A DNA stretch of 64,000 bases from Escherichia coli (GCF_024502345.1 NZ_JALDNN010000001.1); one strand, 5' to 3'. Shown: positions 28,640 through 55,972, numbered from the stretch's first letter. Notes: generated by a model from the letters alone, not told the origin. Numbers and translations are program-made.

Positions 28640-28775
28640 TGTTGGGAGTTTAATGCCGGATAAGGCATTTTACGCCGCATCCTGTGCCTGATGCGACGCT
28701 GGCGCGTCTTATCAGGCCTACAAACCGAGCCGTAGGCCTGATAAGGCGTTTACGCCGCATCCGGCATCTCAATAT
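28640..28775. repeat. REP/BIME element in the nrdA-nrdB intergenic region
   Basis: Imperfect palindromes of the GCCTGATGCGACGCT / GCCGGATGCGGCGTAAACGCCTTATC(A/C)GGCCTAC type, characteristic of E. coli REP sequences. Confidence 0.8.
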
Positions 28776-31060
28776 CAGATCTTACATGCGCCGCTTTCGC
28801 AGCCATCGTCCTGGATTGACGGCACCAGATCGTCCTGCGCGTCTTCAGCGCCGTCACGGGTGTTCTGATAATACAGCGTTTTGACCCCGAATTTGTAGGC
28901 GGTGAGCAGGTCTTTCAGCAATTGCTGCATCGGCACTTTTCCTGACGGGAAGCGTGACGGATCGTAGTTGGTGTTAGCAGAGATCGACTGATCGATAAAT
29001 TTCTGCATGATACCCACCAGTTGCAGGTAGCCATCGTTACCCGGCATTTCCCACAGCAGCTCATAGGCGTCGTGCAGATGCTCGTAGTCCGGCACTACCT
29101 GGCGCAGAATACCGTCTTTCGACGCTTTGATGCTGACGTAACCGCGCGGCGGTTCAATACCGTTAGTGGCGTTAGAGATCTGTGAAGAAGTCTCGGACGG
29201 CATCAGGGCAGAAAGCGTGGAGTTACGCAGACCGTGCGTTTTGATCGATTCACGCAGTGCTTCCCAGTCGTAATGCAGTGGTTCATTAGCGATGGCATCC
29301 AGATCTTTCTTATAGGTATCGATCGGCAGGATCCCTTTCGCGTAAGTGGTTTCGTTAAACCACGGGCACGCGCCTTGCTCTTTCGCCAGCTCATTAGACG
29401 CTTTCAGCAGGTAATACTGAATCGCTTCGAAGGTTTTATGCGTCAGGTTGTTGGCGCTGCCGTCGGAGTAACGTTTACCGTGCTTCGCCAGGTAGTAAGC
29501 GAAGTTGATCACACCAATACCCAGCGTACGACGACCCATCGCCCCGCGTTTGGCGGCCGGGATCGGGTAATCCTGATAATCCAGCAGCGCGTCAAGTGCA
29601 CGAACCGCCAGAATCGCCAGCTCTTCCAGTTCATCCAGGCTGTTAATTGCGCCCAGATTGAATGCAGACAGCGTACACAGCGCGATTTCACCGTTTTCGT
29701 CGTTGACGTCGTTCAGCGGTTTGGTCGGCAGGGCGATTTCCAGGCACAGGTTAGACTGGCGCACTGGCGCGATGGCCGGATCAAACGGGCTATGGGTATT
29801 GCAGTGGTCAACGTTCTGAATATAGATACGACCGGTAGACGCACGTTCCTGCATCATCAGCGAGAACAGCTCAACGGCTTTCACACGCTGCTTGCGGATG
29901 CTGTCGTCTTTCTCATATTTGGTATACAGGCGTTCAAACTCTTCCTGATCGGCGAAGAATGCGTCGTACAGCCCCGGTACGTCGGACGGGCTGAACAGGG
30001 TGATATCTTCACCTTTCAGCAGGCGGGTATACATCAGTTTGTTGATCTGTACCCCGTAGTCCATATGACGCACGCGGTTGCCTTCCACCCCACGGTTGTT
30101 TTTCAACACCAGCAGGCTTTCAACTTCCAGATGCCACATCGGGTAGAACAGCGTTGCCGCACCGCCGCGCACGCCGCCCTGAGAGCAGGATTTCACCGCC
30201 GTCTGGAAATGTTTGTAGAACGGAATACAACCGGTATGGAACGCTTCGCCACCGCGAATCGGGCTACCCAGCGCACGAATACGCCCGGCGTTGATGCCGA
30301 TCCCGGCACGCTGGGAAACATATTTCACAATCGCGCTGGAGGTGGCGTTGATGGAATCCAGGCTGTCGCCGCACTCGATCAGTACGCAGGAGCTGAACTG
30401 ACGAGTCGGGGTACGCACGCCGGACATGATTGGCGTCGGCAGCGAAATTTTAAATGTGGAAACCGCGTCGTAAAAACGCTTCACATATTGCAGGCGCGTT
30501 TCACGCGGGTAGTTCGAGAACAGGCACGCGGCAACCAGAATATAAAGGAACTGGGCGCTTTCGTAGATTTCGCCGGTCACGCGGTTCTGTACCAGATATT
30601 TGCCTTCCAGTTGCTTAACGGCAGCATAAGAGAAGGTCATATCACGGTCGTGATCGATAAACGTGTCCATCTGCTTGAACTCTTCTTCCGTGTAGTCTTC
30701 CAGCAGATGATTATCGTATTTGCCCATCTCGACCATTTTCACCACGTGGTCGTACAGCGCAGGCGGCTCAAACTGGCCGTAGGCTTTTTTACGCAGGTGG
30801 AAGATCGCCAGGCGCGCGGCGAGATACTGATAATCCGGCGCATCACGGGAGATCAGGTCTGCGGCAGCCTTGATAATGGTTTCGTGGATGTCAGAGGTCT
30901 TGATACCGTCATAAAACTGAATGTGGGAGCGCAGCTCGACTTGGGAAATCGAAACGTTATGCAGTCCTTCTGCCGCCCAATCCAGAACGCGATGGATTTT
31001 GTCGAGATTGATGCGCTCTGTGCTACCGTCGCGCTTTGTCACCAGCAGATTCTGATTCAT
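28775..31060 (-). CDS. nrdA: class Ia ribonucleotide reductase alpha subunit NrdA (761 aa)
   Basis: ORF 761 aa with ATP-cone N-terminus (MNQNLLVTKRDGSTERINLDKIHRVL) and the conserved C-terminal Cys pair. Confidence 0.97.
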   Translation of the reverse strand: MNQNLLVTKRDGSTERINLDKIHRVLDWAAEGLHNVSISQVELRSHIQFYDGIKTSDIHETIIKAAADLISRDAPDYQYLAARLAIFHLRKKAYGQFEPPALYDHVVKMVEMGKYDNHLLEDYTEEEFKQMDTFIDHDRDMTFSYAAVKQLEGKYLVQNRVTGEIYESAQFLYILVAACLFSNYPRETRLQYVKRFYDAVSTFKISLPTPIMSGVRTPTRQFSSCVLIECGDSLDSINATSSAIVKYVSQRAGIGINAGRIRALGSPIRGGEAFHTGCIPFYKHFQTAVKSCSQGGVRGGAATLFYPMWHLEVESLLVLKNNRGVEGNRVRHMDYGVQINKLMYTRLLKGEDITLFSPSDVPGLYDAFFADQEEFERLYTKYEKDDSIRKQRVKAVELFSLMMQERASTGRIYIQNVDHCNTHSPFDPAIAPVRQSNLCLEIALPTKPLNDVNDENGEIALCTLSAFNLGAINSLDELEELAILAVRALDALLDYQDYPIPAAKRGAMGRRTLGIGVINFAYYLAKHGKRYSDGSANNLTHKTFEAIQYYLLKASNELAKEQGACPWFNETTYAKGILPIDTYKKDLDAIANEPLHYDWEALRESIKTHGLRNSTLSALMPSETSSQISNATNGIEPPRGYVSIKASKDGILRQVVPDYEHLHDAYELLWEMPGNDGYLQLVGIMQKFIDQSISANTNYDPSRFPSGKVPMQQLLKDLLTAYKFGVKTLYYQNTRDGAEDAQDDLVPSIQDDGCESGACKI

Positions 31061-31137
31061 GTATGTCGTACCTGTTTTTGGAATTCTTTCCGCAATAGTT
31101 TCATGCAGACTACCTGTAGTACGGGAAGCTGCTTAGA

Positions 31138-31186
31138 ACACTATATATAGGGGGTATGTTTGGGATTCACTGCAAGATAGTGTGAA
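31138..31186 (-). promoter_or_regulatory. two NrdR-box-like palindromes (ACACTATATATAGGGG and CACTGCAAGATAGTGTG) upstream of nrdA
   Basis: Paired 16-bp palindromic elements about 85-125 bp upstream of the nrdA ATG, resembling the NrdR operator consensus. Confidence 0.55.
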
Positions 31187-31213
31187 AATGGCCCTCTTGC
31201 AAGTGCATAACTT

Positions 31214-31222
31214 TGTGGATAA
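31214..31222 (-). promoter_or_regulatory. DnaA box (TTATCCACA on the minus strand) in the nrdA promoter region
   Basis: Exact match to the DnaA box consensus TTATNCACA. Confidence 0.6.
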
Positions 31223-31755
31223 CTCAGGAAGGAAAAAGTGGCTTTCGCGCACCTTAGGTCAGACAAGGTGTCCGGGAAAGTCAATGGGAAGAGAAAAATT
31301 TGTTAAAAATAACTGTTCGGCGATTTCTTGAACGGCAGAATAGGTTGGATAAATTGATATAGATGGTTTATTAATCTTTTTGCTAATGATTGCAAAAATT
31401 GATCTAAGCACGAGTCATCACATAATCTGATGTATCAGTTGTGGTCAATATATAAGCGAATGTAAGCGATTGTTGATGTCGAAATGGTTGTTTTCTATTC
31501 GGTTATTGTTAAATGCGAAGCCATTTTGTTAATTTAGCTTATATTATAAGAAAATTATTCATTACTTTAATTTAGTTTAAATATAACTGGTATCCCTTAA
31601 GGTTATTAACTTGAATTATGACGCACTGATACTATTCATCAAATAATAATAAAATAGCTATTGCATCTGGTTGGACAATTTACAAAAGAAAGATAACCCA
31701 TATTGTATAATGCGTTTAAATATGCCGTCTTATATAAAATGATGGTCAGATTAAT

Positions 31756-34700
31756 ATGCGGATTATCTTTCTACGCAAGGAGTATTTATCTCTACTCCCG
31801 TCAATGATTGCATCTCTTTTCTCTGCTAACGGTGTCGCGGCGGCCATTGATTTATGCCAGGGATATGATATCAAAGCGAGTTGTCACGCCAGCAGGCAAA
31901 GCCTTTCAGGCATTACGCAGGTCTGGAGTATCGCCGATGGGCAATGGCTGGTTTTTTCGGATATGACCAATAATGCCAGCGGTGGGGCCGTATTTTTGCA
32001 ACAAGGAGCGGAATTTACATTATCACCAGAAAATGAAACTGGAATGACTCTGTTTGCCAATAACACCGTTTCAGGAGAATATAATAACGGCGGGGCAATA
32101 TTTGCTAAAGAAAACTCAACGCTGAATCTTACGGATGTTATTTTTTCTGGTAACGTCGCAGGCGGCTATGGTGGCGCAATCTATTCTTCTGGTACTAACG
32201 ATACCGGTGCCATCGATTTACGTGTCACTAACGCCGTGTTTCGCAATAACATCGCTAATGACGGCAAAGGTGGTGCAATTTATACCATCAATAATGATAT
32301 CTATTTAAGTGATGATGTTTTTAACAATAACCAGGCATATACATCAACAAGTTACAGTGATGGCGATGGCGGCGCAATCGATGTCACAGATAATAATAGC
32401 GACAGCAAGCATCCTTCAGGTTATACGATAATAAATAACACTGCCTTTACAAATAACACTGCCGAAGGTTATGGCGGGGCGATATATACCAATAGCGCGA
32501 CGGCTCCCTATCTTATTGATATTTCTGTTGATGACAGCTACAGCCAGAACGGAGGCGTGTTAGTCGATGAGAACAATAGCGCAGCAGGCTATGGAGATGG
32601 TCCTTCCTCTGCGGCGGGTGGCTTTATGTATCTCGGCTTAAGTGAAGTTACCTTTGATATTGCCGACGGAAAAACGCTGGTTATCGGCAATACAGAGAAT
32701 GACGGAGCTGTTGACTCTATTGCTGGTACCGGGTTGATCACCAAAACAGGTTCCGGCGATCTGGTACTTAATGCAGATAACAATGACTTTACTGGTGAGA
32801 TGCAGATTGAAAACGGTGAAGTTATTCTGGGCCGCAGCAACTCCCTGATGAATGTCGGAGATACTCATTGCCAGGACGATCCGCAAGACTGCTACGGTCT
32901 GACGATAGGGAGTATTGATAAGTACCAGAATCAGGCAGAGCTAAACGTTGGCTCGACCCAACAAACTTTTGTGCACGCATTGACGGGCTTTCAGAATGGC
33001 ACTTTAAATATCGATGCTGGTGGCAACGTTACTGTTAATCAGGGCAGTTTTGCTGGCATCATCGAAGGTGCTGGTCAGCTCACCATTGCGCAAAACGGCA
33101 GCTACGTGCTGGCAGGGGCGCAGTCGATGGCGCTAACCGGCGATATAGTCGTTGATGATGGTGCGGTGCTTTTGCTGGAAGCCGACGCGGCAGATCTTAC
33201 CGCTCTCCAGGACGATCCGCAGTCGATCGTGTTAAACGGCGGTGTGCTCGATCTCTCTGATTTCTCCACCTGGCAGAGCGGCACATCATACAATGATGGC
33301 CTTGAAGTCAGTGGCAGCAGCGGAACGGTTATCGGCAGTCAGGATGTGGTAGATCTTGCAGGCGGAAACGATATGCATATCGGCGGCGACGGGAAAGATG
33401 GCGTCTACGTGGTGATCGATGCGGGTGACGGGCAGGTCAGCCTGGCAAATGACAATCAATACCTCGGCACAACGCAAATCGCTTCCGGTACGCTGATGGT
33501 GAGCGACAACTCGCAGCTTGGAGATACCCATTATAACCGCCAGGTTATCTTTACCGATAAGCCACAAGAAAGCGTGATGGAGATTACTGCCAATGTCGAT
33601 ACTCGCTCTACAACGACTGAGCATGGGCGTGATATTGAAATGCGCGCCGACGGTGAAGTGGCAGTTGATGCGGGGGTAGACACGCAGTGGGGCGCACTGA
33701 TGGCTGACAGCAGCGGGCAGCATCATGATGAGGGTAGCACATTGACGAAAACGGGGGCGGGTACGCTGGAGCTGACCGCCAGCGGTACAACGCAGTCGGC
33801 GGTACGTGTCGAAGAAGGCACCCTGAAAGGTGATGTTGCTGATATCCTTCCTTATGCTTCATCACTGTGGGTTGGTGACGGGGCAACGTTCGAGACTGGC
33901 GCGGATCAGGATATTCAGTCTATCGATGCTACTTCCAGCGGCACTATCGACATCAGCGATGGTACGGTTTTGCGCCTGACCGGGCAGGATACTTCCGTCG
34001 CCCTTGATGCCTCACTGTTTAACGGCGATGGGACGCTGGTAAATGCTACCGATGGCGTGACGTTGACAGGCGAGCTTAATACCAACCTTGAAACTGACAG
34101 CCTGACCTATCTTGCTGACGTGACGGTTAATGGTGATCTGACCAATACGTCCGGTGCGGTTAGCCTGCAAAATGGCGTCGCTGGCGATACGCTGACGGTA
34201 AACGGTGATTATACCGGCGGCGGTACGCTACTGTTCGACAGCGAATTAAACGGCGATGACTCGGTAAGCGATCAATTGGTGATGAACGGTAATACTGCTG
34301 GCAACACAACTGTGGTGGTTAACTCCATTACAGGGATTGGTGAGCCGACATCGACAGGCATTAAAGTGGTTGATTTCGCAGCTGATCCCACGCAGTTTCA
34401 AAACAATGCACAGTTCAGTCTGGCTGGCAGTGGCTACGTCAACATGGGAGCGTATGACTACACGCTAGTGGAAGATAACAACGACTGGTATCTGCGATCG
34501 CAAGAAGTAACGCCGCCATCGCCACCTGAGCCAGACCCGACTCCCGATCCTGATCCCACGCCGGATCCTGACCCAACCCCCGACCCGGCCCCTACGCCTG
34601 CTTACCAGCCGGTGCTGAATGCCAAAGTTGGCGGTTATCTCAATAACCTGCGGGCGGCAAATCAGGCGTTTATGATGGAGCGACGCGATCACGCTGGTAG

Positions 34701-35508
34701 CGATGGTCAGACGCTGAATTTACGTGTTATCGGCGGACGTTATCATTACACGGCGGCAGGGCAACTGGCTCAGCAGGAAGACACTTCTACGGTGCAGCTT
34801 AGCGGTGACCTGTTTAGCGGGCGCTGGGGCGATGATGGCGAGTGGATGCTTGGGATTGTAGGTGGCTACAGCGATAACCAGGGCGACAGCCGCTCGAGTA
34901 TGACCGGAACTCGCGCCGATAACCAGAACCACGGTTATGCCGTTGGGCTGACCTCAAGCTGGTATCAGCACGGTAATCAGAAGCAGGGGGCCTGGCTGGA
35001 TAGCTGGCTGCAATACGCGTGGTTTAACAATGATGTTTCCGAACAAGACGATGGCGTGGATCATTACCATTCGTCGGGGATTATCGCCTCGCTGGAAGCG
35101 GGGTATCAGTGGTTACCGGGGCGTGGTGTGGTGATTGAACCGCAGGCGCAGGTGATTTATCAGGGCGTGCAGCAGGATGATTTTACCGCCGCTAACCGTG
35201 CGCGCGTGTCACAATCGCAGGGTGATGATATTCAGACGCGGCTGGGTTTACACAGCGAATGGCGTACCGCTGTTCATGTCATACCAACATTAGATCTGAA
35301 TTATTATCACGATCCCCATTCGACGGAAATTGAAGAGGATGGCAGCACTATCAGTGACGATGCGGTGAAGCAATGGGGTGAAATAAAAGTGGGAGTCACG
35401 GGCAATATCAGTCAGCGAGTGTCCCTGCGCGGCAGCGTGGCGTGGCAGAAAGGGAGTGATGATTTTGCCCAGACGGCAGGGTTTTTGTCGATGACGGCGA
35501 AATGGTAA
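31756..35508 (+). CDS. yfaL: AIDA-I-type autotransporter adhesin YfaL/EhaC (1250 aa)
   Basis: Large ORF with repeated GGA(I/V)Y beta-helix passenger motifs, a proline-rich PEPDPTPDPDPTPDPDPTPDPAPTP linker and a C-terminal beta-barrel translocator ending in ...AKW; preceded by about 690 bp of AT-rich DNA. Confidence 0.93.
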   Translation: MRIIFLRKEYLSLLPSMIASLFSANGVAAAIDLCQGYDIKASCHASRQSLSGITQVWSIADGQWLVFSDMTNNASGGAVFLQQGAEFTLSPENETGMTLFANNTVSGEYNNGGAIFAKENSTLNLTDVIFSGNVAGGYGGAIYSSGTNDTGAIDLRVTNAVFRNNIANDGKGGAIYTINNDIYLSDDVFNNNQAYTSTSYSDGDGGAIDVTDNNSDSKHPSGYTIINNTAFTNNTAEGYGGAIYTNSATAPYLIDISVDDSYSQNGGVLVDENNSAAGYGDGPSSAAGGFMYLGLSEVTFDIADGKTLVIGNTENDGAVDSIAGTGLITKTGSGDLVLNADNNDFTGEMQIENGEVILGRSNSLMNVGDTHCQDDPQDCYGLTIGSIDKYQNQAELNVGSTQQTFVHALTGFQNGTLNIDAGGNVTVNQGSFAGIIEGAGQLTIAQNGSYVLAGAQSMALTGDIVVDDGAVLLLEADAADLTALQDDPQSIVLNGGVLDLSDFSTWQSGTSYNDGLEVSGSSGTVIGSQDVVDLAGGNDMHIGGDGKDGVYVVIDAGDGQVSLANDNQYLGTTQIASGTLMVSDNSQLGDTHYNRQVIFTDKPQESVMEITANVDTRSTTTEHGRDIEMRADGEVAVDAGVDTQWGALMADSSGQHHDEGSTLTKTGAGTLELTASGTTQSAVRVEEGTLKGDVADILPYASSLWVGDGATFETGADQDIQSIDATSSGTIDISDGTVLRLTGQDTSVALDASLFNGDGTLVNATDGVTLTGELNTNLETDSLTYLADVTVNGDLTNTSGAVSLQNGVAGDTLTVNGDYTGGGTLLFDSELNGDDSVSDQLVMNGNTAGNTTVVVNSITGIGEPTSTGIKVVDFAADPTQFQNNAQFSLAGSGYVNMGAYDYTLVEDNNDWYLRSQEVTPPSPPEPDPTPDPDPTPDPDPTPDPAPTPAYQPVLNAKVGGYLNNLRAANQAFMMERRDHAGSDGQTLNLRVIGGRYHYTAAGQLAQQEDTSTVQLSGDLFSGRWGDDGEWMLGIVGGYSDNQGDSRSSMTGTRADNQNHGYAVGLTSSWYQHGNQKQGAWLDSWLQYAWFNNDVSEQDDGVDHYHSSGIIASLEAGYQWLPGRGVVIEPQAQVIYQGVQQDDFTAANRARVSQSQGDDIQTRLGLHSEWRTAVHVIPTLDLNYYHDPHSTEIEEDGSTISDDAVKQWGEIKVGVTGNISQRVSLRGSVAWQKGSDDFAQTAGFLSMTAKW

Positions 35509-35509
35509 T

Positions 35510-35640
35510 CGCTGTCTGACCATCACTATTGCCGGATGCGGCGTAAACGCCTTATCTGGCCTACGGAGAGCATTTGTAGGCCTGATAAGACGCGGCAAGC
35601 GTCGCATCAGGCATTGGCGCGGTTGCCGGATGAATCCAAA
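35510..35640. repeat. REP/BIME element between convergent yfaL and ubiG
   Basis: GCCGGATGCGGCGTAAACGCCTTATCTGGCCTAC and GTAGGCCTGATAAGACGCGGCAAGCGTCGCATCAGGC palindromes. Confidence 0.8.
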
Positions 35641-52561: not shown

Positions 52562-55234
52562 CTACAGCAAGCTCTTGACATAACTGTCAATGTCGCTGAT
52601 GTATTTTTCTATTCCTGGAACATCCTTCTCACGAATCAGATGTTCCAGCGTTTCACATAACTGCTTGCCGGGTACCAGATTTAGCATGGCAAATACGCCT
52701 TTAAGACGATGAGCCGTTTGGGCTAACGCAGCAAAGTCACTGGTTGCTGCTTCAGTATACAGCCTCTTAACATCATCCGGTACTGTGTCTACAAAGAGCG
52801 CATAATAGCCGCTGGCATGGAGTTGCGCATTTTCATCTCCGCCCAGAGGCGATTCTGTCACCTCTTCCTGCGCCAGTTGCACTTCAATTAATTGTAAGAC
52901 CGCTTCCTGCATAGCGTTGCTCATATTGAAGTTGACGCACAATTGACCAGGCCCAATTTCCCGTACGCCAGACTCATCATCGCTTAAAAGCAAGCCAGAG
53001 GCAGTAAGATTAGACGGATTATCCGTTAAAAAGATATCATAATCTTGACTAATTAATCTTTCATCGGGTGTGATACAGGTTGCACCCCAATTTTCTAACT
53101 GGCGAGTGACAATATTCCGAATTTCTGCCGAAGTAACATCCACCATTACGCAGACATCATCCAGTAAACGCTCTTCTTCCTCTTCAACTTCCGGGTCAGC
53201 TGCGAGCATTTTGATATGCACAGAGTAGCGTGTACCAAGCCCATCCCGCGTTTTGATGTTTAAATGACCGCCCAGTTTACGTGCCAGTTGATCGCTCAGC
53301 CAGAATGCCAGCGGGTCCGCCTTGCCATAGCGATCGTTTTGGGTCTGGTTGATAAACGGGAAGTGCAAATTATCCATTTCATGAATGCTTACGCCTTCTC
53401 CGGTGTCCAGAATGCGGAACGTCAGGCGGTCTTCGGAGGACTCATCCTGATCAACCTCAAGGGTGATTTTTCCCAATTGCGTTGAGGTCACGGCATATTG
53501 CATCAGTAGCAGCAAAATACGTCGTAAGGCATCGCGATCGCCACGGCGCATATCGTGTGCTTTCAGATGATTGTTAATCAGCAGTTGCAGACCTTTACGC
53601 TTGATGGCAGGCAACACTGAAGGCACAACTTCATCAATTAAATCCTGCACGGAGAACAGCACCGTCTCACTTTTCCAGCTATCGTCCGCAAGCATGTTCG
53701 CTAACTGTATTTCATCGACCAGCCGCACCAGCACATCTGCCTGATTCGCCAGTTGTTTGCTTTCCGGGGCGTTGAGTTTAGCCGCGCTCTCCGCCAGGGA
53801 CTGTGCAGGTTCTTTCAGCGCATCGCCAATGTTTTTCATAAAGGTCATCCGCCCCTGCTGGTTTTTCTCATACAGACGCTGCGCCTGCTTGAGTTTCTTG
53901 TTTACCAGCACTTCGCGATCCTGATCGCGAATAATGAAAATTTGTGTGCGCGGCGCGACCTGGCTGCGGAACATGCGGATCTCATACAGCTCGTTATTGA
54001 TCGTCGCCTGAATAATCCCCTGATGCTGTTCCGCCATGGTGGTGATGTTTTGCAGATTCAAATGCGGCAGCAAATGATCGGCAATTTTGTTACTTATGAC
54101 AGTGCGGTTCGATTCCTGATCGTGAACCAGCAGGCCGAGCGGCAGCAGTGAGACTATCTCTTCATTGATTGCCCGTAAAATGCGCAATTCGTTATTGACC
54201 GCCGTGTTGGGTAGACTTTCTGTACTGCGACTGGAGAAATGGCGGAATGTGGTATAGCCAAATAACGCCAGCGCCAGCAAACCGATGTTCAGCAGCAGTG
54301 GCAGCAGAATGTTTTGCAACGTATCCAGCAATAAGGTGCCATAAGGAACCTGCCAGACCAGTCGCATATCGGTAGAGTTGAGTGCCGAGGAGATTTCAAT
54401 CTTCGTACTGTTAAAGTGGATACTGACGCTATCCGTCCCTTCTTTCTCATTATCATTGTCTCCCGTTGCCGTCGCGTCTGGCTCAAGGCGGAAACTGTCC
54501 AGCGGCATACCCGGTGGGATCAAATCATTAATCGGCAGATCAAAAGCCACGACCGTTGCCAGATGTCCCGGCTGGTTGAACGTGGTACGTAAGGTAAAGT
54601 AATGACCGTTCTGCCAGGCCAGGCGGCGCATGTTAGAAAAACTTTCGCGTTCATCGAGGGCGTTGGCCTGTTGCAACATCTCTGCACGACGTGAATCAAC
54701 AATGTCACTGACGGTCGATTCTTTAAATCCGGAGGTGAGATCTTTGAGGGGCAGGGTTGAGATCAGTACCAGACTGTTATCCTGACCATTCAGGTAATAC
54801 ATTGACCACGGTACATTTTCTGCGCCCCACAATGTGTCCAGATAGGTGGACATCCGTTGAGTCATCTCAAGCGTTGAGTTGTCGTGAGAGCCAAAGATTA
54901 ACGCTTCCGTTTTGCGGCGCGGTTTTTCCAGATAGTAGACATCCTGTTTCAGGCGCGTCTCTTGTAAACCTTCGCCGGAGGAGGGGGAGGTCGTCGCGGC
55001 AATGTTGTCGTAGATCTGCCAGGTCACGTAACGCCAGTTATCGACGCGCTTTTGGATAGCATGGGTAATGTCGACAATCTGGTAACTTTTATCTTTCAGC
55101 CAGGCGTTAACGGCGCTTTGTACCATTACACCCATCGTCACCAGTAACACAATGATCAACAGTAAAAAGAAGCGGGTAATGCTCCCCGGTAGGAGTGAAA
55201 AGCGGGTCGTGGCCGTTGTCTCTTTCTGACGCAT
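52562..55234 (-). CDS. rcsD: phosphotransfer (HPt) protein RcsD (890 aa)
   Basis: ORF 890 aa with N-terminal TM/periplasmic domain, degenerate kinase-like core and C-terminal HPt domain; immediately upstream of rcsB. Confidence 0.95.
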   Translation of the reverse strand: MRQKETTATTRFSLLPGSITRFFLLLIIVLLVTMGVMVQSAVNAWLKDKSYQIVDITHAIQKRVDNWRYVTWQIYDNIAATTSPSSGEGLQETRLKQDVYYLEKPRRKTEALIFGSHDNSTLEMTQRMSTYLDTLWGAENVPWSMYYLNGQDNSLVLISTLPLKDLTSGFKESTVSDIVDSRRAEMLQQANALDERESFSNMRRLAWQNGHYFTLRTTFNQPGHLATVVAFDLPINDLIPPGMPLDSFRLEPDATATGDNDNEKEGTDSVSIHFNSTKIEISSALNSTDMRLVWQVPYGTLLLDTLQNILLPLLLNIGLLALALFGYTTFRHFSSRSTESLPNTAVNNELRILRAINEEIVSLLPLGLLVHDQESNRTVISNKIADHLLPHLNLQNITTMAEQHQGIIQATINNELYEIRMFRSQVAPRTQIFIIRDQDREVLVNKKLKQAQRLYEKNQQGRMTFMKNIGDALKEPAQSLAESAAKLNAPESKQLANQADVLVRLVDEIQLANMLADDSWKSETVLFSVQDLIDEVVPSVLPAIKRKGLQLLINNHLKAHDMRRGDRDALRRILLLLMQYAVTSTQLGKITLEVDQDESSEDRLTFRILDTGEGVSIHEMDNLHFPFINQTQNDRYGKADPLAFWLSDQLARKLGGHLNIKTRDGLGTRYSVHIKMLAADPEVEEEEERLLDDVCVMVDVTSAEIRNIVTRQLENWGATCITPDERLISQDYDIFLTDNPSNLTASGLLLSDDESGVREIGPGQLCVNFNMSNAMQEAVLQLIEVQLAQEEVTESPLGGDENAQLHASGYYALFVDTVPDDVKRLYTEAATSDFAALAQTAHRLKGVFAMLNLVPGKQLCETLEHLIREKDVPGIEKYISDIDSYVKSLL

Positions 55235-55545
55235 TCGTGTTTATGACCTGTTAAAACTTCGCGAAGTGATAGGGCAGTATAAAGGGTACAGTGTGAAATT
55301 CCAGACTCTTACCTGATTGATGATTCTCTATTCTCCCGTGATATTTATCATCCTGCATTGGGGGAAATAGATGTACAAGCGCCATTTTGCTGTACAAATA
55401 ACCTACGAAAAGCCCAACGAAATTAATTGCAAATAAACGAAGATTGCTGGAAATTATGCTGATGTTAATTATTTGTGAAATAGTTAACAAGCGTTATAGT
55501 TTTTCTGTGGTAGCACAGAATAATGAAAAGTGTGTAAAGAAGGGT

Positions 55546-55638
55546 AAAAAAAACCGGATGCGAGGCATCCGGTTGAAATAGGGGTAAACAGACATTCAGA
55601 AATGAATGACGGTAATAAATAAAGTTAATGATGATAGC
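55546..55638 (-). ncRNA. micF: MicF small regulatory RNA (antisense regulator of ompF mRNA), including its intrinsic terminator
   Basis: Minus-strand sequence GCTATCATCATTAACTTTATTTATTACCGTCATTCATTTCTGAATGTCTGTTTACCCCTATTTCAACCGGATGCCTCGCATCCGGTTTTTTTT matches MicF as I recall it; divergent from ompC. Confidence 0.9.
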
Positions 55639-55793
55639 GGGAGATATTCTAGTTGCGAGTGAAGGTTTTGTTTTGACATTCAGTGCTGTCAAATACTTAA
55701 GAATAAGTTATTGATTTTAACCTTGAATTATTATTGCTTGATGTTAGGTGCTTATTTCGCCATTCCGTAATAATCTTAAAAAGTTCCCTTGCA

Positions 55794-55855
55794 TTTACAT
55801 TTTGAAACATCTATAGCGATAAATGAAACATCTTAAAAGTTTTAGTATCATATTC
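55794..55855 (+). promoter_or_regulatory. OmpR-binding sites C1-C3 of the ompC promoter (TTTACATTTTGAAACATCTA / TAGCGATAAATGAAACATCT / TAAAAGTTTTAGTATCATAT)
   Basis: Three tandem 20-bp OmpR-box-like elements about 120-180 bp upstream of the ompC ATG. Confidence 0.75.
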
Positions 55856-55972
55856 GTGTTGGATTATTCTGCATTTTTGGGGAGAATGGACCTGCCGACT
55901 GATTAATGAGGGTTAATCAGTATGCAGTGGCATAAAAAAGCAAATAAAGGCATATAACAGAGGGTTAATAAC

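Follow-up and report, generated by a model that had tools for sequence, protein, structure and literature searches.

The 695-bp gap between the divergent genes nrdA and yfaL in the analysed window, a 64,000-nucleotide stretch of Escherichia coli DNA, is probably composite (we put the probability at about 80%), with ~ 280 bp of ancestral nrdA control DNA followed by ~ 415 bp that belong with yfaL. By the ORF list, the gap extends from 31061 to 31755, in agreement with the ~ 690 bp estimated earlier from the sequence alone (hereafter, the sequence-only reading). It is flanked by the nrdA coding sequence (28775–31060, minus strand), encoding the 761-residue alpha subunit of class Ia ribonucleotide reductase, and by yfaL, also named ehaC (31756–35508, plus strand), an AIDA-I-type autotransporter adhesin gene of 1250 codons; both genes are in the ORF list and in RefSeq. 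Gene names follow RefSeq, as annotated on the E. coli chromosome NZ_CP109924.1, to which a 1001-bp query across the gap was 100% identical. The same query was at least 80% covered in 5423 of the 5426 complete E. coli genomes. The binding of NrdR, DnaA, HusR, ArgP and H-NS and the transcription start site are taken from the literature, H-NS occupancy and the silence of yfaL from published summaries; our own analysis yielded the anatomy and composition of the gap and showed that yfaL is missing from other genera, that divergence goes with the allele, and that coding and RNA-structure signals are lacking.

The composite origin is indicated by the corresponding loci of other genera. Outgroup loci were found via members of the NrdA 90%-identity protein cluster and exact-protein look-ups, giving four loci from three genera, with Salmonella, E. 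fergusonii and E. albertii left out of the set. In all four, yfaL was absent, and ubiG was the next gene upstream of nrdA and had the same orientation. The ubiG–nrdA spacer measured 416 bp in Citrobacter sp., 487 bp in Citrobacter youngae, 493 bp in Yersinia pseudotuberculosis, and 349 bp in Pectobacterium sp. The Citrobacter spacers consisted of REP elements downstream of ubiG, ~ 40–60 nt, and then sequence aligning with the region upstream of E. coli nrdA. In E. coli, the homologous REP elements downstream of ubiG (35531–35613) adjoin the stop codon of yfaL. The absence of yfaL between ubiG and nrdA in the outgroups is the arrangement that horizontal acquisition would leave. From these loci we infer that a yfaL cassette, spanning roughly 31340–35530, was inserted in the Escherichia lineage rather than lost elsewhere. 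The GC content of yfaL (0.517) is ordinary compared to that of the window (0.514), which suggests that the acquisition was not recent.

The ancestral part of the gap, 31061–31340, has counterparts in the genera lacking yfaL, and we place its outer edge between 31318 and 31345. In a collinear test anchored at the position of the DnaA box, segments 31223–31282 and 31283–31342 scored z = 2.0–3.4 for both Citrobacter and Pectobacterium, and only 5–38 of 1000 shuffles did as well. The segment 31343–31462 gave z from − 0.5 to 0.9 in the same test, and Yersinia showed no signal. By strict segment-wise local alignment, significant cross-genus similarity was limited to 31167–31225 and parts of the nrdA 5′ UTR. 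Since homology beyond 31225 emerged from the anchored test alone, the boundary is stated as approximate. We place the junction near 31340 by taking these tests together with the GC minimum that begins at 31339 and with the end of the control block in its phage copies at ~ 31317, which is independent of yfaL.

These phage copies are carried by P1-family phage-plasmids and correspond to 31174–31317 of the window, with 95% identity in P7-type and 78–84% in P1-type copies; seven of them, 78–95% identical to the window, served as outgroups, making ten copies together with three E. coli lineages. The phage copy is already annotated in the P1 records (M95666; NC_005856) as an “nrdA-like promoter” and a “dnaA box” upstream of hot, and this region is homologous to 31184–31298 with 83% identity. 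The P7-type copies match 31177–31317 at ~ 94–95%. Unlike its E. coli counterpart, the phage block does not lie beside a ribonucleotide reductase gene, and it differs in the − 10 region and beyond ~ 31317.

On the yfaL side of the junction, the composition of the DNA changes markedly. The GC content is 0.286 over 31290–31750, against 0.514 for the window, which bears out the extreme AT-richness that the sequence-only reading had ascribed to this interval. Over 31340–31755 it falls to 0.276, and the lowest-GC stretch of 416 bp in the whole 64-kb window begins at 31339. Composition, the promoter scan described below and the comparison with other genera together mark 31340–31755 as AT-rich upstream DNA of yfaL, specific to the yfaL-bearing lineage.

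The same division is visible within E. coli. Conservation across strains, a check that the sequence-only reading had proposed, separated the two parts when the B2 strain S88 was compared along the region. Identity was 97–100% in the nrdA coding sequence and 96–99% in the nrdA promoter and the block upstream of it, decreased to 89–95% over 31250–31450, and reached 76–86%, the lowest of the gap, over the yfaL-proximal 31450–31750. In the passenger region of yfaL it was 64–80%, so the yfaL-proximal part of the tract has diverged along with the allele of yfaL. The whole tract, a single-copy sequence, was found in 5425 of the 5426 complete E. coli genomes and is unusually polymorphic, with 1004 records only 80–90% identical. 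A search of a phage database returned no copy of the tract. Six matches in PLSDB were considered as plasmid-borne copies and rejected; some of these records are 1.4–4.9 Mb long and two annotate yfaL under the match, and we read them as misfiled chromosomal DNA.

The motifs in the nrdA part of the gap are control elements already known for NrdR and DnaA (PMC12176259; PMC2760140 site list), in line with the cell-cycle and dNTP control proposed by the sequence-only reading. The transcription start maps to 31167 (U00096.2 2342780) and defines a 107-nt 5′ UTR at 31061–31167 on the minus strand, according to the PMC3415461 supplement; an “nrdA -107” entry in the PMC2760140 supplement agrees with this length. 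Relative to that start, we read a sigma-70 promoter at 31174–31202 (minus strand) with the − 10 hexamer TATCTT at 31174–31179, a 17-bp spacer, and the − 35 hexamer TTGCAA at 31197–31202. The same − 35 hexamer is given in the PMC2760140 supplement.

The sequence-only reading had noted two NrdR-like palindromes near nrdA, and one of them is strong. NrdR box 1 (31138–31153; ACACTATATATAGGGG, or CCCCTATATATAGTGT in the nrdA sense, minus strand) is the sole match in 64 kb within three mismatches of the partially palindromic 16-bp consensus acaCwAtATaTwGtgt that was used in the pattern search, and it agrees with the consensus at 14 of 16 positions. At this threshold 0.64 matches per window are expected by chance, so the context of the box matters. 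Box 2 (GTACTACAGGTAGTCT in the nrdA sense; 31107–31122, minus strand), 15 bp from box 1, qualifies as a palindrome only in the looser sense of the literature. Both box 2 and the formerly proposed “box 0” (31170–31185, minus strand), which overlaps the − 10 hexamer and is separated from box 1 by a 16-bp linker, have the right spacing but six mismatches each, and neither is callable from sequence alone. In a 2025 study (PMC12176259), which gave exact oligonucleotides and newly recognised box 2 as an NrdR site, NrdR bound boxes 1 and 2 with a KD of ~ 100 nM, whereas boxes 0 and 1 were bound poorly (KD > 6000 nM). These affinities place the functional operator in the transcribed leader and not over the promoter. 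Consequently, the promoter-overlapping pair, most likely the one meant in the sequence-only reading, is not the high-affinity pair.

Upstream of the promoter, two DnaA boxes occupy 31202–31222 on the minus strand, an imperfect one at 31202–31210 (TTATGCACT) and a perfect one at 31214–31222 (TTATCCACA); they were located by pattern search and are reported in PMC2760140. The perfect box, correctly noted in the sequence-only reading, occurs once in 64 kb. At least one copy of this 9-mer appeared in 30 of 100 shuffles, and its occurrence is not significant alone; it is meaningful because of its position and its invariance across ten chromosomal and phage copies. Both boxes are unchanged in the three E. 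coli lineages and the seven phage copies. DnaA sites for nrdA are given in a RegulonDB-type site list in the PMC2760140 supplement, and DnaA is named as an nrdA regulator in PMC12176259. A contig scan with the paired-box pattern TTATCCACANNNTTATNCAC returned no enterobacterial nrdA locus among the matches listed, which included origin-like DnaA-box clusters of unrelated phyla; the pattern is too generic.

Two HusR (YnfL) boxes, placed in the window from the sequences in Table 1 of PMC12844172, lie at 31225–31240 and 31260–31275. An ArgP (IciA) site for nrdA, GCATTTAACAATAACCGA, is given in PMC2760140 supplementary file 6 and maps to 31499–31516 on the minus strand. This site falls inside the supposedly yfaL-specific DNA, and the functional division of the gap is not clean.

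The published E. coli nrdAB region is reproduced here in full. Boxes 1, 2 and “0” are identical to the PMC12176259 oligonucleotides, and the transcription start, the 107-nt leader and the DnaA sites all match, this strain having no differences. B2 strains differ from it in the nrdA leader, which lacks 13 bp (31081–31093). In Citrobacter and Pectobacterium, the perfect DnaA box is located downstream of NrdR box 1, whereas here it is upstream of the − 35 hexamer.

A sigma-70 scan of the tract found nine promoter-like sites, compared to 3.6 ± 1.7 in shuffled sequences, all inside 31399–31706. One of them, TTGATC-16-CATAAT at 31399–31426 (plus strand), is a predicted promoter facing yfaL; it was also predicted independently from RpoD genomic SELEX (PMC3946193), and its hexamers are kept in K-12 and B2. 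Another predicted site, TTTACA-16-TATTGT (31679–31711, plus strand; from the scan and our reading of the sequence), overlaps a perfect TATAAT at 31706–31711, ~ 45 nt before the yfaL ATG; the TATAAT is kept in K-12 and reads CATAAT in B2.

Such DNA resembles the promoter islands described by Panyukov and Ozoline in 2013 (PMC3661553), which are AT-rich, H-NS-bound, transcriptionally poor and located beside horizontally acquired genes. The tract shares with them the lowest GC content of the window, the excess of promoter-like hexamers, and a gene that is absent from related genera. Indeed, an island named “yfaL(-)/ypaB(-)” (U00096.2 2342143–2342676, 534 bp) is among the 78 listed for E. coli K-12, and yfaL was called foreign by three of five predictors in Table 1 of that paper. 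With an offset of + 1978 set by the published nrdA coordinates, the island maps to ~ 31271–31804 of the window. It is therefore not equivalent to the 31340–31755 segment: it contains the whole of it but also extends ~ 70 bp into the ancestral nrdA upstream region (31271–31339) and over the first ~ 50 bp of yfaL. We must also note that our scanner is simpler than PlatProm, the program that defines the island class (at least 300 bp with dense promoter-like sites).

The sequence-only reading had described yfaL as an H-NS-silenced adhesin gene. The occupancy part of this claim agrees with published summaries: the yfaL/ypaB island belongs to H-NS category “A”, for which every ChIP-chip study found binding (PMC3661553 summary), and the yfaL–nrdA spacer is marked “HNS” in the RpoD holoenzyme genomic SELEX table (PMC3946193). 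The 10-bp high-affinity H-NS motif TCGATAAATT was not enriched, with two weak matches in the tract and 75 in the window against 60 expected, which makes it uninformative here. That the bound H-NS causes the silence of yfaL is, in turn, our inference from its occupancy. The yfaL phenotypes in K-12 were obtained with a constitutive promoter inserted immediately upstream of the ATG (PMC3764049). The AT-rich upstream DNA, the published H-NS occupancy and the phenotype from an inserted promoter are features that yfaL shares with the H-NS-silenced cryptic adhesin loci of K-12. For yfaL itself, silencing by H-NS is presumed, and the tract differs from those loci in bordering an essential housekeeping promoter, on which it may act.

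The sequence-only reading had regarded the tract as an unusually long leader of yfaL. The corresponding alternative to our reading is that the tract is a genuine 5′ leader of ~ 320 nt, transcribed from the 31399–31426 promoter and subject to control after initiation, e.g., by premature termination or by occlusion of the start codon. The agreement between our scan and the SELEX-based prediction and the conservation of the hexamers in K-12 and B2 speak for it, as does a 13-nt inverted repeat that pairs 31687–31699 with 31760–31772 across the yfaL start codon. As a structure, however, this repeat was rejected, because it carries several changes in B2 that are not compensated. RNA of the yfaL sense, taken from the 31399–31426 promoter up to the start codon, folded no better than its shuffles (z = − 0.28), conservation within the gap is lowest in the would-be leader, and the nearer site with the perfect TATAAT would give an ordinary leader of ~ 40 nt. 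Moreover, the available part of the PMC3415461 table of transcription start sites has rows for ubiG, ypaB and nrdA but none for yfaL, and the available parts of two PMC2760140 supplementary files of mapped starts and predicted sites contain no yfaL start either. With no start site on record in these sources, the long leader is unsupported and we consider it unlikely; as far as the evidence goes, the tract is upstream silencing or regulatory DNA rather than a demonstrated 5′ UTR.

A broader version of this idea is that the 31399–31426 promoter, which lies within the well-conserved 31340–31450, drives a transcript normally suppressed by H-NS, and that this transcript either forms the ~ 320-nt yfaL leader or couples the H-NS patch to nrdAB. 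We regard it as a long shot. In the case of coupling, the transcript would run away from nrdA and act by way of the ArgP and H-NS sites in the tract.

The other candidate gene in the gap is ypaB (31188–31331, plus strand), annotated in RefSeq and in K-12 (b4605) as a 47-codon ORF over the nrdA promoter and the control region upstream of it. The sequence-only reading had overlooked this ORF, and its description of the gap as non-coding holds with the caveat that ypaB is annotated; the coding test on ypaB was negative. The ATG of ypaB falls within the promoter spacer, flanked by the − 10 and − 35 hexamers of nrdA, and the body of the ORF covers the DnaA and HusR sites. Across the ten copies, the variable columns were spread evenly over codon positions 1, 2 and 3 (24, 22 and 23 of 42). 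B2 has CTG in place of the ATG, three phage copies lack this start codon, four phage copies carry in-frame stops, and one and the same 1-nt deletion, common to all seven phage copies, alters the C-terminal third of the ORF. The sole fully invariant stretch is TGCAAGTGCATAACTTTGTGGATAAC, i.e., the − 35 hexamer with both DnaA boxes. Invariance confined to this stretch is the signature of protein-binding DNA, not of coding sequence. Judged from these sequence comparisons, ypaB is probably not a protein-coding gene but a chance frame over protein-binding sites.

That ypaB is instead a real, HusR-activated gene for a 47-residue protein, with UpfO and Upf91.6 of P1-family phages as homologues, seems very improbable to us. 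Besides its annotation, this view can draw on the P1 and P7 records, which annotate ORFs from the same aligned ATG, on the high conservation of the ORF among E. coli, and on an RT-qPCR “ypaB” signal whose stationary-phase increase depends on HusR (PMC12844172). The overlapping binding sites, however, account for the conservation, the HusR boxes are inside the ORF and not upstream of it, and a CRISPRi study traces the phenotype of ypaB to the promoter of nrdA. We saw no statement that the RT-qPCR in PMC12844172 was strand-specific, and the HusR-dependent “ypaB” RNA indicates no more than some transcription across the nrdA upstream region. Conceivably, it is divergent and non-coding and modulates the nrdA promoter by interference.

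Least credible is the suggestion of the sequence-only reading that the tract could conceal an unannotated small RNA or small-protein gene: 416 bp with many promoter-like sites offer room for one and promoter islands reportedly yield very short RNA products (PMC3661553), but the Rfam search of the tract region yielded nothing credible up to E = 10, the scan found no intrinsic terminator to accompany the excess of promoter-like sites, neither strand folded better than shuffles (z = − 0.31 for the strand opposite to yfaL), no ORF of at least 25 codons is present within 31411–31703, and the tract, 76–86% identical to B2, has no relatives elsewhere. TTG is the start codon of most ORFs of 20–23 codons in the tract, and B2 has lost the ATG of the ORF at 31513. 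A hit to Rfam IS605-orfB-I at 31241–31448 was dismissed as chance (E = 1.4, 16 bits versus a gathering score of 94), and a repeat search of the tract found only short AT-rich repeats.

We thus favour the composite reading, in which the two parts of the gap would work as follows. The DNA from 31061 to ~ 31340 would be the ancestral nrdAB control region, with its sigma-70 promoter, the start at 31167, and the 107-nt leader. The NrdR operator formed by boxes 1 and 2 in the leader would repress transcription when dATP and ATP/ADP load NrdR. The two DnaA boxes sit immediately upstream of the − 35 hexamer; the HusR sites, together with an upstream element rich in AT, reach to ~ − 150 of nrdA. The remaining DNA, ~ 31340–31755, would be AT-rich cassette DNA of yfaL, brought in between the REP elements of ubiG and the nrdA control region. 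Its high AT content would account both for the many promoter-like hexamers and for the coating by H-NS, and in laboratory cultures this coating would silence yfaL almost completely, along with spurious initiation. Part of the H-NS effect reported for nrdAB is probably due to the same coating.

Most of the components described here are already published, including the nrdA start, the NrdR and DnaA boxes, the HusR and ArgP sites, ypaB, and the AT-rich tract itself. The composite origin, the approximate junction, the allele-linked divergence and the non-coding character of ypaB are new but minor additions. The nrdA control region is among the best-studied E. coli promoters and the tract has already been catalogued, so the analysis offers little beyond a tidy annotation. 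Nevertheless, the division of the gap into two parts indicates to experimenters which deletions are likely to hit an essential gene. It also matters that ypaB (b4605) is probably non-coding, yet recent work still treats it as a regulatory target. Finally, the regulatory DNA proximal to yfaL co-varies with the deeply divergent alleles of this adhesin gene.

The nrdA upstream control block (31174-31317) also occurs in P1-family phage-plasmids, with copies in 15 phage and 318 PLSDB records. The phage-carried block retains the -35 hexamer, both DnaA boxes, the HusR boxes and the AT-rich element, and it usually lies upstream of hot, which encodes a homologue of the DNA polymerase III theta subunit, or of humD. 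Copies were located at 1501-1615 of the phage P1 locus (L004) and 1494-1632 of the P7 locus (L006), as well as in the phage loci L128, L129, L130, L131 and L002. In the P1 records, the block is already annotated under the names 'nrdA-like promoter' and 'dnaA box'. Identity to the block in the window was ~94-95% for the P7-type copies, compared to 78-84% for the P1-type copies. The near-identity of the P7-type sequences suggests a fairly recent exchange between phage and chromosome.

We also observed a recurrent motif, ATTGACTTTCCC, at 31275-31286 on the minus strand, some 108-119 bp upstream of the nrdA transcription start. In the collinear position, Citrobacter carries ATTGACATCCCC and Pectobacterium carries ATTGACATCCTC. 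The core of the motif, AAAGTCAAT, is nearly invariant among the phage copies of the block.

Within E. coli, strains of the B2 phylogroup (e.g. S88) lack 13 bp of the nrdA 5′ UTR (31081-31093), between NrdR box 2 (31107-31122) and the ribosome-binding region. In the same phylogroup, the ATG start of ypaB (31188) is replaced by CTG, and the RefSeq annotation of S88 is without ypaB. The published TSS table of PMC3415461 includes a weak antisense start inside the nrdA coding sequence (4 reads, at U00096.2 2343399 on the minus strand) and credits it to ypaB with a 640-nt 'UTR'. This start corresponds to ~30548 on the plus strand of the window.

At the other end of the yfaL cassette, repetitive extragenic palindrome (REP) elements at 35531-35613, between the yfaL and ubiG stops, are homologous to the Citrobacter REPs downstream of ubiG and mark the far junction. 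In NZ_CP133811.1 (strain EC2001; H88), the match to the AT-rich tract (31340-31755) starts only at query position 189 and is split over two places, and the annotation under the match reads 'hypothetical protein'; this strain may carry an insertion or rearrangement within the tract. Comparably low GC (<0.33 over 416 bp) was found elsewhere in the window only at ~55234-55971, the rcsD-ompC intergenic region, which in E. coli contains micF. That region is also tagged 'HNS' in the RpoD SELEX table (PMC3946193).

We compared 31100-31225 with the corresponding segments from Citrobacter sp. (L132, 5585-6000), Citrobacter youngae (L136, 3514-4000) and Pectobacterium sp. (L135, 5652-6000). In both genera, a perfect TTATCCACA lies directly downstream of NrdR box 1 (31138-31153 in E. 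coli), an inverted TGTGGATAA occupies the site of E. coli NrdR box 2, and only degenerate versions remain at the E. coli DnaA-box positions (31202-31222). The Yersinia arrangement is E. coli-like. Judged from these alignments, where the DnaA boxes sit relative to the nrdA promoter differs between genera.
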